DNA from: Polyangia bacterium
Lineage (GTDB): Bacteria > Myxococcota_A > Polyangia > Palsa-1104 > JAEUJZ01
NCBI GenBank assembly: GCA_046351595.1
Contig: JAXLYE010000002.1
Coordinates: 1,560,022-1,624,021 of the forward strand
Direction: 5' to 3'
Length of the DNA: 64,000 bases
Shown here: piece after piece, positions 9,850-53,233 of the stretch
How the letters are laid out: each line of letters opens with the position of its first letter
Position numbering within the stretch: the stretch's first letter is position 1
Notes under the pieces: model-generated
Told to the model about the DNA's origin: nothing
Database searches by the model: none
The model's input: only the letters and a program-made list of their open reading frames with translations
Made by a program: the position numbers and the translations under genes

Positions 9850-10136
9850 GGGCTTGCAATAGCACAGCTAAGCCCGCAAACGGGTCAAAAAAATTCCCCA
9901 TTTTCTTCGGCCGCATCGACGGCAACTAGTGCCGGGTCCGCCCCAAGCCGGGGGGCCGCGCGCGTCCAGCCTTGACCTTCGCGCCGCGGCTCACTACCTT
10001 CATCTCGACCCGGCTGCCTGAATCGCCTCGGTGAGGAGAGTTTTTTCCCTACAAGCATTGAACCCGGGATCTGCCGCTGGCCGTGGCGTGCACGCCCGCT
10101 CGTCGGGAAGCCCAATCCGGCTATTTGCAGAGCCCA

Positions 10137-10195
10137 CCTACTTCGGTAGGGGTTCAAACTTCCACACCACGACCGGGCGGGGGTCATTTTTTTTG
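10137..10195 (+). ncRNA. Candidate small RNA 3' end: a UUCG-tetraloop hairpin followed by a terminator-like hairpin and a run of eight T residues
   Basis: CCUACUUCGGUAGG is a 5-bp stem closing a UUCG loop. GACCGGGCGGGGGUC followed by UUUUUUUU lies at about 10171-10194. It sits in a 466-bp gap between divergent genes and is in the wrong orientation to terminate either flanking gene. Confidence 0.3.
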
Positions 10196-10315
10196 TTGTC
10201 GTTCAGGGGGGGACCTTCCCGTCCCCCCTCCCTCGGCAGAGCCGAGTGAGCCTCGGCATCTGTCTCTCTGGGCCGCGCGTTTGCCTGTGCTATCTGTAGT
10301 GCCAAGGAGTCCGGC

Positions 10316-21367: not shown

Positions 21368-21430
21368 CGTGACAGGGTGTAACGGAGGGCGTGATAGGGT
21401 GTAACGGAGGGTGTGACGCCGTGTAACGAC
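21368..21430. repeat. Intergenic 22-bp direct repeat, about 2.5 units
   Basis: The units are GACAGGGTGTAACGGAGGGCGT, GATAGGGTGTAACGGAGGGTGT and GACGCCGTGTAACGAC. They lie about 120 bp upstream of the molybdopterin oxidoreductase start. Confidence 0.7.
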
Positions 21431-24984: not shown

Positions 24985-25103
24985 TCATACATAGGACACC
25001 GGACTTTGTCTGGTGCGAACCCGCGCGAGAAACGCGCGGCATGGGGGAGGCTCGCTCGGCTTTGCCGAGTGAGGGGGCACGGGAAATTGCCCCCTGTATC
25101 AGA
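24985..25103 (+). ncRNA. Copy 1 of a repeated roughly 120-nt element made of four consecutive hairpins; either a structured RNA or a DNA-level regulatory module
   Basis: The four stems are ACCGGAC-TTT-GTCTGGT, CCGCGCG-AGAAA-CGCGCGG, CTCGCTCGGC-TTT-GCCGAGTGAG and GGGGGCA-CGGGAAAT-TGCCCCC. The second copy is at 51898-52016. Confidence 0.4.
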
Positions 25104-26307
25104 ACGCGCTCACGCCGCGCGGGCGGGCGACGACGACCCGCACGTTGCCCTGATCGGACAGCGGCGCCACCTTGAGCGCGTGCTCGTCGCCGCTATCGAT
25201 GATCAGGTCGTGCGGTCCGAGGACGCCGTCGGGCACGCCCTGCGGCCCCGAGTCCGCGAACAGGACGACGATGTGATCGAGCGCGCGCGGCAGCTCGCCC
25301 GCGCCCAGGTAGTCGACGGCCAGGATGTCGCCGGGGCGCACGTCGGCGCCGAAGCGCAGCGGCGGCTCGGAGGCGCTGGTGCACGCGGGCATCGCCGTCG
25401 GACAGACCCGCACCGTGGCCTCGCGCCCGAGCTTGCCGATCGCGTCGATCACGCCGCCGACGTTGGAGTAGCGCAGGCGCGGCAGGCCGGCCCGCCGCAG
25501 CGCCGCGACCAGCACGTCCGCGCAGTCGGCGCCGAGGAAGCGCTCGGCCTGGTTGCGGGCGCCGTCACCGGCGCTGCCGAACAGGTAGGGGACGTTGTAG
25601 AAGGCGGTGAGCCAGCCGATGAAGCCGTCGCCGGTGCGGAAGCTGTAGCGGAAGGCGCGCTCGGCGCCCGTGCCGCTCGCCGTGTCGACGGCGCCGGCGG
25701 GGCCCGGGGTCTTCCACTCGCGCCCGCCGCTGCGCACCGTGGCGCCCAGGCGCAGGGTGCCGCAGCCCTCGTGCTCGGGCGGGCGCGGCGCCGCGAAGCT
25801 CGACGGGCGGGCGTCGCGCACGAGCAGGCTGAGGCCCGCGGCCTGGTCGATCGCGTGCTCCTCGTACTCGATGCGGTCGTAGCCCAGCCAGCGGCCGTGG
25901 CTGGGCCCGAAGATCGCGGCGTTGGCGTAGACGCGCAGCGACGGGTTGGGCGACGGCGTCGCGGTGTGCGCCATGCGCGGCTCGATGCGGTGCCAAAGGA
26001 CCTCGAGCGGGCCGCAGCCGCTGCCGGTCCACGAGACGTGCCCGCGGCCGCCGTCCTCGCTGAAGACGACCTTGCGGCCCTCGAGCAGGCCGGGCATGAC
26101 CAAAAAGACCTCGAGCTCCTGCCCGAGCCGCGCGTCGACCGCCGCGGCCGGGGGCCCGTCGCTGCCGCGCAGCCTTCCCGCCAGCGTCGGCTCGCCGCGC
26201 AGCTCGCAGCGGGGCGGGGCGGCTCGGGCCGTGCGCTCGTGCAGCAGGACGGACGGTAAGGCAGCCAGCACCCCGATGAGGAAGACGCAGCGAGCGGTCC
26301 CGGTCAT
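25099..26307 (-). CDS. Secreted hypothetical protein, possibly an NlpC/P60- or DUF1287-like hydrolase
   Basis: The signal peptide reads MTGTARCVFLIGVLAALPSVLL. The C-terminal region GADCADVLVAALRRAGL...GDILAVDY...HIVVLF resembles the Cys...His arrangement of the papain-like NlpC/P60 fold. This is the only ORF in the interval with coding-type codon bias. Confidence 0.55.
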   Translation of the reverse strand: MTGTARCVFLIGVLAALPSVLLHERTARAAPPRCELRGEPTLAGRLRGSDGPPAAAVDARLGQELEVFLVMPGLLEGRKVVFSEDGGRGHVSWTGSGCGPLEVLWHRIEPRMAHTATPSPNPSLRVYANAAIFGPSHGRWLGYDRIEYEEHAIDQAAGLSLLVRDARPSSFAAPRPPEHEGCGTLRLGATVRSGGREWKTPGPAGAVDTASGTGAERAFRYSFRTGDGFIGWLTAFYNVPYLFGSAGDGARNQAERFLGADCADVLVAALRRAGLPRLRYSNVGGVIDAIGKLGREATVRVCPTAMPACTSASEPPLRFGADVRPGDILAVDYLGAGELPRALDHIVVLFADSGPQGVPDGVLGPHDLIIDSGDEHALKVAPLSDQGNVRVVVARPRGVSAF

Positions 26308-45238: not shown

Positions 45239-45622
45239 ATGATCCTCGGCATCCACCACGTCCAGATCACGGTCCCCAAGGGCAGCGAGGCGGCGGCCCG
45301 CGCCTTCTACTGCGAGCTGCTCGGTCTGGTCGAGGTCGCGAAGCCCGCGGTGCTGGTCCCGCGCGGCGGGTTCTGGCTCGCGGCCGGGGCGCTGCAGGTG
45401 CACGTCGGGGTCGAAGACGGCGTCGAGCGCGGCGCCACCAAGGCCCACGTCGCCTACGAGGTGCTCGACCTCGGCGCCTGGCGCGCCCGCCTCGAGCGCG
45501 CGGGGATCGAGATCCTGCCCGGCATCCGCCTGCCCGGCATCGAGCGCTTCGAGTTCCGCGATCCGTTCGGGAACCGCGTCGAGTTCATCGAGCGGATCCG
45601 TGACGGCGCGCACTCCGGCTGA
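45239..45622 (+). CDS. VOC family protein (glyoxalase / bleomycin-resistance fold)
   Basis: The product reads MILGIHHVQITVPKG...AFYCELLGL...FRDPFGNRVEF. Confidence 0.85.
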   Translation: MILGIHHVQITVPKGSEAAARAFYCELLGLVEVAKPAVLVPRGGFWLAAGALQVHVGVEDGVERGATKAHVAYEVLDLGAWRARLERAGIEILPGIRLPGIERFEFRDPFGNRVEFIERIRDGAHSG

Positions 45623-46634
45623 GCACTGGGTCTGCTGCGTGCTCGCTGCGGGTCTGCAGCTCGCGTTCCGCAGGTGCTCCCGGGCGCGACGCCTTGCTGC
45701 CGCTCCGTTCCCCGCCCGCGGCCCCTGGCGCCGTGGGCGCTGCGCCGCCGCGGGGAACGCCCGGGCTCGGGTCTGCGACGGCGGGCTCACTCTGCGCTGG
45801 AACGGCGACTCGCTCTACTGGTTCAGCGCGCTCAGCGGCAAGTCGCTCACCCCGCTGCGCACCGAGGTCCAGAACAGCCTCGAGATCACCGACGTCTGGG
45901 TCGAGCCGGGCACGCGCGACGTCAGCATGATCTCGTGGAACGCCGCCACCTCGTCGCTCTACTTCGGGTTCGGCTCGCCCGACGAGGACAGCGTGCAGTT
46001 CATCAACCCGACCGAGGAGGCCGGGAGCGGCCTGGACCCGGCCGGGACCAAGGACTGCAAGGGCGCGGCGGCCGCGATGTTCGTGCCGCGCAAGCCGCTG
46101 TCCATCGCCTGCTCGCGCGCCAACAGCGGCGACTGCTGGGTCAGCGGCGAGAAGAACCTGCTTCTCTTCCACGGCCCGCGCAACCCGATCCAGAACTACC
46201 GCGACTGCAGCAACAGCCTGGTCTTCAGCCCGCCGGGCCCGGCGCTGCGCGCCCTGCACGTCCTGACCGACGCGTCCAACTACGAGAAGTACGACTACGT
46301 CGGCGTCGGCGACGGCGGCGCCTTCTTCACCGGCGGTCGCGATCCGGTCCTCGCCATGCCGCCGCTGAACCTGCCGCCCTACATCGGCCCGGTGGTGCCG
46401 GGCGGCATGCGGCCCGCCGTCCCCTTCACCGCGGCGACGATGACCAAGCCCGGCGTCGCGCTGGTCGGCGGCGCCGGCGGCTACGTCGGCCGCATCGCCA
46501 ACCCCGGCACGGGCTACGTGGCGACCCCGATTGCGCTCGGCACCACCGACGACGTCTCGGACCTGACCGTGGTGCGCGACCACCTGCTGGTGACGACCAA
46601 GGGCGGCCAGCTCTTCGACCTCGCGGTCCCCTGA
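45600..46634 (+). CDS. Hypothetical protein with an uncertain start
   Basis: Good codon bias runs from about 45770 onward (...LRWNGDSLYWFSALSGKSL...). The first 50 codons are Arg-rich and may not be translated. Confidence 0.5.
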   Translation: MTARTPAEHWVCCVLAAGLQLAFRRCSRARRLAAAPFPARGPWRRGRCAAAGNARARVCDGGLTLRWNGDSLYWFSALSGKSLTPLRTEVQNSLEITDVWVEPGTRDVSMISWNAATSSLYFGFGSPDEDSVQFINPTEEAGSGLDPAGTKDCKGAAAAMFVPRKPLSIACSRANSGDCWVSGEKNLLLFHGPRNPIQNYRDCSNSLVFSPPGPALRALHVLTDASNYEKYDYVGVGDGGAFFTGGRDPVLAMPPLNLPPYIGPVVPGGMRPAVPFTAATMTKPGVALVGGAGGYVGRIANPGTGYVATPIALGTTDDVSDLTVVRDHLLVTTKGGQLFDLAVP

Positions 46635-46759
46635 TACATGGGGCACTCTCCCGTGCCCCCTCATCGAGCAAAGCTCGATGAGCCTCCCCCCCGCCGCGCG
46701 TTTTTCGCGCGGGTTTTGTCACCGGACAGAGTCCGGTGCGCTGTGTATGGGGTCGCGCC

Positions 46760-51728: not shown

Positions 51729-51897
51729 CGGGTGATGCGTAGCCCGTCTGCGCCGCGGGGTGCAAGTGCAGATTCCTGCGCGCCCACCCGCCGCGGGCCT
51801 GCGCGCGCCCCGCCCCGCGGCGACCGTCCCCGCCGGGAGTCGACCGTCGAAAACGGCCGCGGCACGGGCCGCTGCGGCCGGTGCCAGGGCGCAGGCC

Positions 51898-52016
51898 TCA
51901 TGCACAGGGAACCAGACTTTGTCCGGTGACAAACCCGCGCGGGGAGCGCGCGGCGGGGGGAGGCTCGTCGAGCTCTGCTCGACGAGGGGGCACGGGAAAG
52001 TGCCCCCTGTATAAGA
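51898..52016 (+). ncRNA. Copy 2 of the four-hairpin repeated element
   Basis: It is about 80% identical to copy 1. The third stem uses a different sequence but remains perfectly paired (CTCGTCGAGC / GCTCGACGAG). The loop of the second stem differs (GGGAG versus AGAAA). Confidence 0.4.
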
Positions 52017-52342
52017 AAAAAAACGGCAAAAAATTTGCTCGCTTGATCGACCGACCCCAGCATGGGCGCGTGTCTGTGGGCACCGATCTAAATAGCCACA
52101 TAACGCCGTCGCGACAGCGCCATAAGCGCGGCGAAGTGCTGGCTATGATTGAAACGTTTCAAGAGGTTTCACAGGCGCAGGACCTCGGTCACGGGCTCCA
52201 CCACGGCCGACCGGCTGCCGAGCGGGCCGCGCCCCATGCCGGCCCCGCTGCAGACCCCGATGCCGGCCCCGGCACCAAGCGGCCGAGGCGTGCGCGCGGC
52301 GCTTCCGCTGCGGCCGCCTACCGTGCGAACATCTCTGCCGAG

Positions 52343-53233
52343 ATGATCTCGCCAGCCAGGGGGGCCGGGGTCGGGGGCGCGAAGGTGAACCCGGTGGGGC
52401 CGCGGCCGTTCCTCAAGTGGGCCGGCGGCAAGCGCCAGCTGTTGCCCGAGCTTCTGGCCCGGCTGCCGGCCTCGTTCCGTCGCTACCACGAGCCGTTCCT
52501 GGGCGGCGGCGCGCTGTTCTTCGCGCTCGCCGAGCGCGGCCACGAGGGCGCCCGCGGCGCCGTCCTGTCCGACGTCAACCCCGAGCTCGTCAACGCCTAT
52601 AAGGTCGTGCGCGATCGCGTCGAGACGCTCATCACGCTGCTCGGCGCATTCCGCAATGAAGAAGAGTTTTATTACCAGGTTCGTGAGCAGGACCCGAGCC
52701 AGCTCGATCCCGTGCAGCGGGCGGCGCGCCTCATCTACTTGAATAAGACCTGCTTCAACGGCTTGTTTCGCGAAAACCGGAACGGGCGATTCAACGTTCC
52801 GTTTGGCCGATACCGCCAGCCGCTGATCTGCGCACCGAACGAGCTGCGTGCCGCCAGCAAGGCGCTGCGCGGCGCCTCGATCGAGCGCCGCCCGTTCGAG
52901 GCCGCCCTGGATCTGGCCGGCCCCGGCGACTTCGTCTACTGCGACCCGCCCTACGCGCCGATCAGCCGCACCGCCTCGTTCACCGGCTACACCGGCGGCG
53001 GCTTCGACGAGGCGGCGCAGCGGCGCCTGGCCGAGCGCGTGCGCAGCCTCGGCGCCGCCGGCGTGCACGTGCTGGTCTCGAACTCGTGGGTGCCGCTGAC
53101 GCAGTCGCTGTACGACGGGCTGCGCATCGAGAAGGTGCTCGCCAGCCGGGCCATCAACAGCCGCGGCGACCGGCGCGGCAAGGTGCCCGAGCTGCTGGCC
53201 GCCGCCGGCCCCGCGGGCTCGACGGGCTGCTAA
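52343..53233 (+). CDS. Dam-family (alpha-class, D12) DNA N6-adenine methyltransferase, an orphan with no adjacent restriction gene
   Basis: The motifs are FLKWAGGKRQLLPEL, NKTCFNGLFRENRNGRFNVPFG and YCDPPY. An in-frame extension back to the ATG at 52145 is possible but begins with poor codons. Confidence 0.85.
   Translation: MISPARGAGVGGAKVNPVGPRPFLKWAGGKRQLLPELLARLPASFRRYHEPFLGGGALFFALAERGHEGARGAVLSDVNPELVNAYKVVRDRVETLITLLGAFRNEEEFYYQVREQDPSQLDPVQRAARLIYLNKTCFNGLFRENRNGRFNVPFGRYRQPLICAPNELRAASKALRGASIERRPFEAALDLAGPGDFVYCDPPYAPISRTASFTGYTGGGFDEAAQRRLAERVRSLGAAGVHVLVSNSWVPLTQSLYDGLRIEKVLASRAINSRGDRRGKVPELLAAAGPAGSTGC

Follow-up and report, generated by a model that had tools for sequence, protein, structure and literature searches.

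A window of 64,000 nucleotides from a Polyangia bacterium (by "the window" we mean this whole stretch of DNA) carries an element in which four hairpins had been predicted from the sequence alone, with two copies that differ by compensatory base changes. The question is what this element is. Three options had been offered: a novel sRNA family, a structured module of an untranslated region, or a REP-like DNA element. The supposed four-hairpin RNA is a MITE-like repeat that inserts at T-N-A triplets, often a stop codon. We assign a probability of about 0.8 to the reading that this element, which is specific to Polyangia myxobacteria, is a mobile MITE-type DNA repeat that is non-autonomous, non-coding and ~112 bp in length. 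Its layout is modular, A-(B-C-D)n, with truncated and tandem forms. The observations comprise its small size, inverted-repeat ends, a 3-bp T-N-A duplication, empty orthologous sites, an independent insertion into the same spacer and the modular structure.

Copies in the window

Copies were counted with a stem-D pattern, with a second pattern search and with a covariance model run without filters. The element had been described as present twice, but the window holds four copies. They score 46-102 bits with the covariance model, and the next best match is at 18 bits. The 27-nt stem-D pattern matches three times in the window, with 0.00 matches expected. The two copies of the original prediction (24985-25103 and 51898-52016) are indeed there, these ranges including the 3-bp flanking repeats. 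An intact and a degenerate copy, both on the minus strand, had been missed.

Copy 1 (24988-25098(+)) is full-length with 111 bp, has the stems and the inverted repeats, and scores 98 bits on 25017-25104. The left inverted repeat starts at 24988 and is followed by stem A (24997-25015), stem B (25021-25039), a G-rich linker (25040-25050), stem C (25051-25073), stem D (25073-25094) and the right inverted repeat, which ends at 25098 (TGTA). The same triplet, TCA, flanks the copy on the left (24985-24987) and on the right (25099-25101). On the minus strand, the right triplet reads TGA and forms the stop codon of a gene (25099-26307(-)). Copy 2 (51901-52011(+)) is also full-length with 111 bp and scores 98 bits on 51931-52017. 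Its flanking triplets, TCA (51898-51900) and TAA (52012-52014), have one mismatch. Copy 3 (46635-46747(-)), full-length with 113 bp, scores 102 bits on 46629-46716. It is flanked by TGA (46632-46634), which is the stop codon of the gene at 45600-46634(+), and by TGG (46748-46750), again with one mismatch. Copy 4 (about 10197-10285(-)) is degenerate and scores 46 bits (E = 2.9e-8) on 10197-10272. It retains half of stem B, a diverged linker, an intact stem C and a stem D with a compensated change (GGGGGGAC/GTCCCCCC).

Copies 1 and 3 are each flanked by convergent genes, copy 1 being placed between two convergent stop codons as originally described. The predicted context of copy 2 is likewise correct: it lies in a divergent spacer, between a minus-strand gene and the plus-strand gene for a D12 (Dam-type) methyltransferase. 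This gene (51881-53233(+)) codes for a D12-class N6-adenine DNA methyltransferase (Pfam PF02086, E = 1e-57). The methyltransferase domain begins at residue 180 of the longest ORF, and the true start is probably near 52150-52400. An A-rich tract (52012-52045, AAGAAAAAAAACGGCAAAAAATTTGC) follows copy 2 immediately. On the minus strand, this tract reads as a weak hairpin (GCAAA/TTTGC) followed by T8, with no evident minus-strand gene upstream and with a weak, sub-threshold match to a DapZ terminator-like sequence.

Copy 4 follows directly after the terminator of a 6S RNA gene, a few bases on and on the opposite strand. The 6S (SsrS) RNA gene (10012-10189(+)) scores 56.3 bits against Rfam RF00013 (gathering score 46.4), with a T-run at ~10186-10194; it is the sole match when the whole window is searched with Rfam. 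Elsewhere in the window, an intergenic direct repeat (21370-21430) consists of GTGA(C/T)AGGGTGTAACGGAGGG, present twice, followed by a third, partial unit (GTGTAACGA). It is located just upstream of a large gene starting at ~21463 and could be a regulator-binding array.

The family outside the window

In a scan of one genome per species, 12 copies were found, all of them in three Myxococcales/Polyangia MAGs. A protein encoded in the window has 100% identity to a protein of an NCBI MAG named "Polyangia bacterium", which places the window in this lineage. Metagenomes were searched with a pattern that imposed GCGCGGC, GGGGAGGC and GGGGGCAC and placed no constraint on stem C. This returned 95 loci, about 75 of which are true members. 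Searching for further copies, as had been proposed, thus gave two more in the window and about 75 more in Polyangia/Myxococcales MAGs and metagenomes. Contigs of marine metagenomes that form two groups (L017, L022, L023, L050, L086, L090, L095 and L101; L032, L070, L073, L085 and L102) were rejected as non-members. They are near-identical within each group and represent chance pattern matches in G+C-rich sequence. Plasmid and viral collections held no copies of the element.

Among the loci that represent complete contigs, 21 have the match no more than ~150 nt from a contig end. A Logan contig with a sequence identical to that of the window (L108) breaks off within copy 1. Contigs that end at the element indicate that it behaves as a high-copy repeat in assemblies.

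The full unit opens with TACA and closes with TGTA, within imperfect terminal inverted repeats of 12-17 nt (TACAnnGnGGCAC...GTGCCCCnTGTA). In one example, the left end (CTAATACAtGcGGCACT) is identical at 15 of 17 positions to the reverse complement of the right end (CTAATACAGGGGGCACT). In 13 loci, the paired ends are separated by 112-114 bp. The A module (TACAnnGGGCACC..ACTTTGTCCGG..) carries the left end and is found in only part of the family. The right end belongs to the conserved B-C-D core of ~80 nt, which reads tCGCGCG-agaaa-CGCGCGG CGGGGGGGAGG CTC-(5 variable bp)-GC-TTT-GC-(5 variable bp)-GAG GGGGCAC-GGGAAA-GTGCCCC and continues with cTGTA or CCTA. This core occurs alone, as core-only copies, and in tandem arrays. 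At one metagenomic locus (L037, 2765-3045(-)), one A module is followed by three identical tandem B-C-D units with a period of ~80 nt, which shows that the core can be amplified like the boxB of BOX elements. Partial extra units are present in L036, L044, L055, L059 and L067.

Several variants depart from this layout. In a subfamily of four loci (L025 1661-1790, L030 4400-4536, L053 12300-12429 and L068 44-175), stem D breaks off after GTGCC (or GTGCG) and continues into another shared module of ~45 nt (TTTCAAGAAAAAAATACAG..GTCGGTGAGTG..GTGTTGGGTTC), which suggests nested or chimeric repeats. Two loci (L080 1470-1610 and L092 20-150) have a common insertion of ~38 nt (GCCGGCAATCGCCGGCGGGCAGCAAGCTCGGAAAGC.CC) inside stem B. 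A copy in L107 (13426-13524(+)) has a longer stem C with a large loop (CTCAACTGCCAGAAATTAGATCGCTCCAGTTGAG) and yet reaches 85 bits with the model. A different 5' module (AACTAGTCCCCTGArTCAGTrAATTCTTG) is found in L007 (7845-7990) and L009 (4525-4670). In L007, matching inverted sequence is present past the right end (CAGGAAGAAATTGACT), resulting in a longer outer inverted repeat.

Hairpins and compensatory variation

The predicted stem B (CCGCGCG/CGCGCGG, with loop AGAAA in one copy and GGGAG in the other) and stem D (GGGGGCA/TGCCCCC) are correct. Stem A was predicted with 7 bp; it is present but has 8 bp in copy 1 (CACCGGAC/GTCTGGTG), one of them a G.T pair, and one A.C mismatch in copy 2. 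As a conserved structure stem A was rejected: it pairs well only in the subfamily that resembles the copies in the window, whereas other subfamilies keep the motif TTTGTCCG and not the helix. Stem C, which had been described as fully paired in both copies with at least five differences, does have 10 bp and is paired in both, but the 5' arms differ at four positions, the 3' arms at five, and copy 1 has one G.T pair. In copy 3, stem C is different again and still paired (CTCATCGAGC/GCTCGATGAG). Folding z-scores are -3.5 to -6.8 against shuffles, on either strand.

The covariation claimed for stem C is far stronger when more copies are considered. On 63 distinct cores, 97.7% of the cells are paired (32-55% when the partners are slid by 1-3 columns), and 131 cells are compensated on both sides (35 +/- 5 in shuffled data). 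Independent variation of the paired positions, which would have spoken against the original claim, is not what the further copies show. The covarying pairs number five, all of them inner pairs of stem C. Across the same 63 cores, covariation is never seen in stems B and D, in the three outer pairs of stem C or in its two loop-proximal pairs. Stems B and D, the G-rich linker and the loop bases are near-invariant. The search pattern (GCGCGGC, GGGGAGGC, GGGGGCAC) accounts for some of this invariance, but it placed no constraint on the 5' arm of stem B, the 3' arm of stem D, the CTC/GAG pairs or the GC/GC pairs, which are nevertheless constant to at least 95%. A guide-like role of stem C was considered and rejected, as its longest shared word with its own flanks has a mean length of 6.09 nt (6.14 nt for mismatched pairs).

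The compensation in stem C might be mutational rather than selected. Template switching in the hairpin at replication would copy one arm from the other, so that palindromes stay perfect without having a function. In favour of this, the correction of quasi-palindromes is a well-known route of mutation, the variable region with its constant loop comes close to a perfect palindrome, and 17 of the 35 distinct stem-C cores are fully Watson-Crick. However, 13 of the 35 cores contain a mismatch and five contain a G.T pair, which arm-to-arm copying would erase. Nor does template switching explain why only 5 bp vary, with stems B and D and the neighbouring pairs of stem C remaining constant. We consider this explanation unlikely.

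On the G-rich strand, G.T pairs outnumber A.C pairs (63 vs 4 cells), although many of these cells go back to common descent and the terminal T.G of stem B makes up more than half of them; among the distinct stem-C cores, the ratio is 5 vs 2. We take this as an indication, short of proof, that folding occurs on the G-rich strand. The excess suggests that one strand folds, something that a purely double-stranded mechanism does not need, and it thus counts against the MITE reading. Three further points stand against it. Conservation is far from confined to the inverted repeats: the G-rich linker, stem B and the loop GGG of stem D are near-invariant as well, a pattern uncommon among MITEs that hints at a further role. 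A classical transposase could not act on the many copies in which the A module and left inverted repeat are missing. The flanking triplets are non-identical in 9 of 22 copies.

From the unusual conservation pattern and the G.T wobbles that favour one strand, a speculative reading of the core can be derived. The B-C-D core may function as a folded single strand, either RNA or DNA: the invariant stem B, the GGGGGGGAGG linker and stem D (with GGG in its loop) would surround a 5-bp "address" in stem C that is hypervariable but always paired. This address would perhaps be read by a protein (e.g. as specificity of a mobilising enzyme), or the core might be a regulatory RNA module exapted by the host. 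Against it, stem C is not related to the sequence that flanks it. We regard this reading as distinctly improbable.

Target duplication and empty sites

The main reading, a mobile DNA repeat of the MITE type, draws on the ends of the element and on orthologous spacers. The triplets that flank TACA...TGTA are identical in 13 of 22 full-length copies (4.5 expected by permutation, p = 2e-5). Identical triplets are TAA, TTA, TGA, TCA and GAA and thus mostly T-N-A. Their middle base is identical in 16 of the 22 copies and complementary in one. Being identical and not complementary, it marks the triplets as a direct target duplication and not as an extension of the inverted repeats. For the same reason, a 2-bp TA duplication of the IS630/Tc1 type with CA...TG ends was rejected in favour of a 3-bp duplication: the outer triplets are direct, not complementary.

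The gene to the right of copy 1 (25099-26307(-)) and its neighbour, which codes for a PLP-dependent enzyme (PALP), are syntenic in two related metagenomic loci (L110 and L111, 83% and 71% amino-acid identity, respectively), and both lack the element in the orthologous spacer. L110 reads TTC TAG, 18 nt and CTA, and L111 has a 4-nt overlap of the two genes. In the window, the order is TTC TGA, the element (TACAGG...CCTATGTA), TGA, 25 nt and TCA. A third locus (L109) has 93.5% DNA identity to the window over the flanking genes. The protein ends there with the same C-terminus (...GVSAF*) and the same TGA stop codon. Behind this stop, the corresponding spacer contains a decayed copy in opposite orientation (54 bits, with A/T-to-G/C changes at the ends and a deletion in stem C). 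The copy in L109 is an independent insertion event in the spacer of copy 1. For copy 3, the ortholog of the gene at 45600-46634(+) in L113 (82%) is followed by an empty site (CCC TGA, 37 nt and CTA), where the window reads CCC TGA, the element (TACATGGGG...CTGTGTA), TGG, 9 nt and CTA. At both sites tested (copies 1 and 3), the insertion is exactly at the stop codon, which is the duplicated triplet, and the C-terminus of the protein is unchanged. Inverted repeats, target duplications and empty orthologous sites together argue for insertion by transposition.

Stop codons as targets

Stop codons were surveyed in the metagenomic loci, with convergent ORFs restricted to those of high GC3. A convergent ORF has its stop codon at most 16 nt from stem D in 19 of 62 copies, and in 14 of these 19 it is exactly the flanking triplet. 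A co-directional stop codon is found near the 5' end in 11 of 59 copies. In a genome with 72% G+C, T-N-A triplets in accessible positions would be scarce except as stop codons (TAA and TGA, read as TTA and TCA on the opposite strand), so that the element would often land on a stop. The duplicated triplet would regenerate the stop codon, leaving the gene unharmed and the insertion tolerated.

The frequent proximity to gene ends may also be taken as the signature of a cis element that is selected by the host, its hairpins serving as 3'-end protector or as factor-independent terminator, which would be compatible with a mobile origin. About a third of the copies start exactly at a stop codon, copies 1 and 3 are situated between convergent genes, and the hairpins are very stable (folding energies of -52 to -68 kcal/mol). 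REP, ERIC, Correia and SPRITE elements act in this way and affect neighbouring mRNAs by read-through transcription (PMC10969869, PMC3049150); by analogy, transcription reading through the element may affect the adjacent mRNAs. Against host selection, a U-tract follows none of the hairpins, copy 2 is in a divergent promoter region and not 3' of a gene, and the same spacers lack the element in related genomes. The T-N-A target is a simpler explanation of the stop codon adjacency, and we think a host-selected role very improbable.

A possible RNA gene family

A multicopy family of sRNA genes would have an own promoter for each copy and produce a four-hairpin RNA of ~110 nt that acts in trans, possibly via the GGAGG-rich linker (CCUCC-rich on the other strand). 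Such a family would agree with the strong compensatory variation in stem C, with the excess of G.T over A.C on the G-rich strand and with the near-invariant unpaired bases of linker and loops. The minus strand also has a weak resemblance to the anti-Shine-Dalgarno sRNA ar14 (E about 1), which is far under the gathering score.

However, no Rfam family is matched at threshold. The element had not been recognised as SRP RNA, 6S RNA, tmRNA, RNase P RNA or another familiar RNA family, and a search of the copies agrees, being without a match at gathering or permissive thresholds. With Rfam 15, the best hits at the copies have E of about 0.5-1, far below the gathering threshold, ar14, DapZ and naRNA4 all being sub-threshold. 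Neither a sigma-70-type promoter nor an intrinsic terminator was found at the copies, in a scan that covered the sigma-70 type among the promoter types of myxobacteria. The sigma-54 consensus is TGGCACG-N4-TTGCW. A candidate sigma-54 promoter in stem D (GGCAC-N6-GTGC) was rejected for its wrong spacing and its wrong -12 element with respect to this consensus. Orientation relative to the flanking genes is random: between tandem genes, ~9 copies are co-directional and ~10 anti-directional, once chance matches are removed. This lack of bias is also why a co-directional 3'-UTR element was rejected as a general rule. In addition, truncated, tandem and decayed copies are present, and the ends of the element overlap the stop codons of neighbouring genes. 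The inverted repeats, 3-bp target duplications and empty orthologous sites indicate transposition. Among the options originally offered, the "REP-like DNA element" comes closest, while the "novel sRNA family" lacks support. There is no evidence that the element is an sRNA gene; covariation shows that the hairpin is kept, not that it belongs to an RNA gene. We judge an sRNA family to be highly improbable.

Comparison with known elements

The MITE-type mobile repeat, our preferred reading, can be set against published descriptions. Except for a demonstrated partner IS, the element has the features published for prokaryotic MITEs (PMC10969869). MITEs are below 500 bp and devoid of coding capacity; full-length copies have 111-115 bp and core-only copies ~80 bp, too short for a transposase. 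Terminal inverted repeats, which in MITEs are of about 4-30 bp, are imperfect and 12-17 nt long, with TACAnnGnGGCAC(T) at both ends. Flanking direct repeats from target duplication are represented by the 3-bp repeats, and presence/absence at orthologous sites by the loci described above (L110, L111 and L113 are empty; L109 has the opposite orientation). MITEs are A+T-rich, and the element, with 64-69% G+C, is slightly so relative to the window (72%), the difference being small. The definition of prokaryotic MITEs includes truncated copies that resemble REPs (PMC10969869). An autonomous IS with matching ends was not found in the window or in ~640 kb of loci, either by scanning for end pairs at distances of 0.5-6 kb or by comparing all loci with one another in BLAST. 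A literature search gave neither a description of this element nor work on myxobacterial MITEs or comparable repeats, and a 2024 review on MITEs has no text match to "Myxo" (PMC10969869).

Several known elements are similar in part. In the Correia elements of Neisseria, the target duplication is TA, 2 bp. These elements (CREE/NEMIS) are non-coding, about 100-150 bp long, and have inverted repeats and a short A/T-containing target duplication; they have many intergenic copies, often beside gene ends, their transcripts fold stably, and they have no known transposase partner (PMC10969869). Our element shares this lifestyle, being short and non-coding, with inverted repeats, target duplication and many intergenic copies near gene ends. 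It differs in its unrelated sequence and host and in its 3-bp T-N-A duplication, and the promoters and IHF site that Correia elements carry were not seen; Correia elements, in turn, lack repeatable modules. The BOX elements of Streptococcus pneumoniae have the structure boxA-boxB(n)-boxC, with inverted repeats in the terminal modules and an internal module that is absent or in tandem, and form MITE-like stem-loops (PMC3049150). The likeness to BOX is in architecture only, i.e. A-(B-C-D)n with three units in L037. Unlike in BOX, the repeated unit includes the right end (D), the 3-bp T-N-A duplication is clear, the host is unrelated and G+C-rich, and the sequence appears to be unrelated. QMITE2 (Coxiella) and Chunjie (Geobacter) have few full-length and many truncated, REP-like copies without inverted and direct repeats (PMC10969869). 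The core-only B-C-D copies parallel these truncated copies, although sizes, direct-repeat lengths (7-9 bp in QMITE2) and hosts are others.

With the REP/BIME elements of Enterobacteria and Pseudomonas, the element shares G+C-rich extragenic hairpins, a mosaic or tandem structure and the frequent position between convergent genes. REPs are single palindromes of 20-40 nt with a conserved tetranucleotide, have neither inverted-repeat ends nor target duplication, and are RAYT-linked. The structural ones among these defining features are not seen in the element. A REP/BIME- or IS200/IS605-type palindromic element would be moved as single-stranded DNA by a hairpin-recognising Y1 HUH transposase (RAYT or TnpA). 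The several G+C-rich hairpins, the BIME-like mosaic and tandem architecture, the core-only copies without a left inverted repeat and the strand-asymmetric G.T excess, which fits recognition of a single strand, all agree with this. HUH-mediated insertion (IS200/IS605, REP/RAYT) is not known to make terminal inverted repeats or target duplication, whereas full-length copies have inverted repeats of 12-17 nt and a 3-bp direct target duplication. Alignments show no conserved GTAG-type tetranucleotide beside a single 20-40-nt palindrome; in place of the one palindrome with tetranucleotide and without duplication of a REP/REPIN, there are four different hairpins over ~112 nt, nor does the element have the form of an IS200/IS605 derivative (subterminal hairpins, no inverted-repeat ends, no duplication). 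We judge this explanation to be highly improbable.

Proposed mechanism

As a MITE-type repeat, the element would depend for its movement on a DDE-type transposase that acts in trans from another locus. A 3-bp target duplication with a preference for T-N-A or T-W-A is known for the IS5 family (IS1031/IS427 groups) and for PIF/Harbinger-Tourist MITEs. The 3-bp T-N-A duplication of the element resembles these, a likeness that we treat as a lead only; on this basis, an IS5/Harbinger-like enzyme is a candidate mobiliser. Ends in the IS5 family generally begin with G, whereas the element starts with TACA, and a transposase was not found in the sequences scanned for an autonomous IS. Pairing in stem C would be kept because the folded single strand matters, either as DNA in transposition or replication, or as RNA upon read-through from a neighbouring gene. 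Stem B, the linker and stem D would be near-invariant because only copies that keep them yield new copies.

Implications

The element is worth masking and annotating in Polyangia genomes and MAGs, as it breaks assemblies, with numerous contigs that terminate in it, and can be mistaken for a structured RNA. It also calls for caution in covariation-based RNA discovery, because strong compensatory change is possible in a mobile DNA repeat. Two points are of modest interest: the insertion exactly on stop codons, and the hypervariable, compensated stem in an otherwise invariant core. A paired stem that is hypervariable amid invariant surroundings bears on the question of what MITE mobilisation needs. 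For the host, the element illustrates transposon life in a very G+C-rich genome, with T-N-A targets that are often stop codons and with a stop that is regenerated by the duplication.
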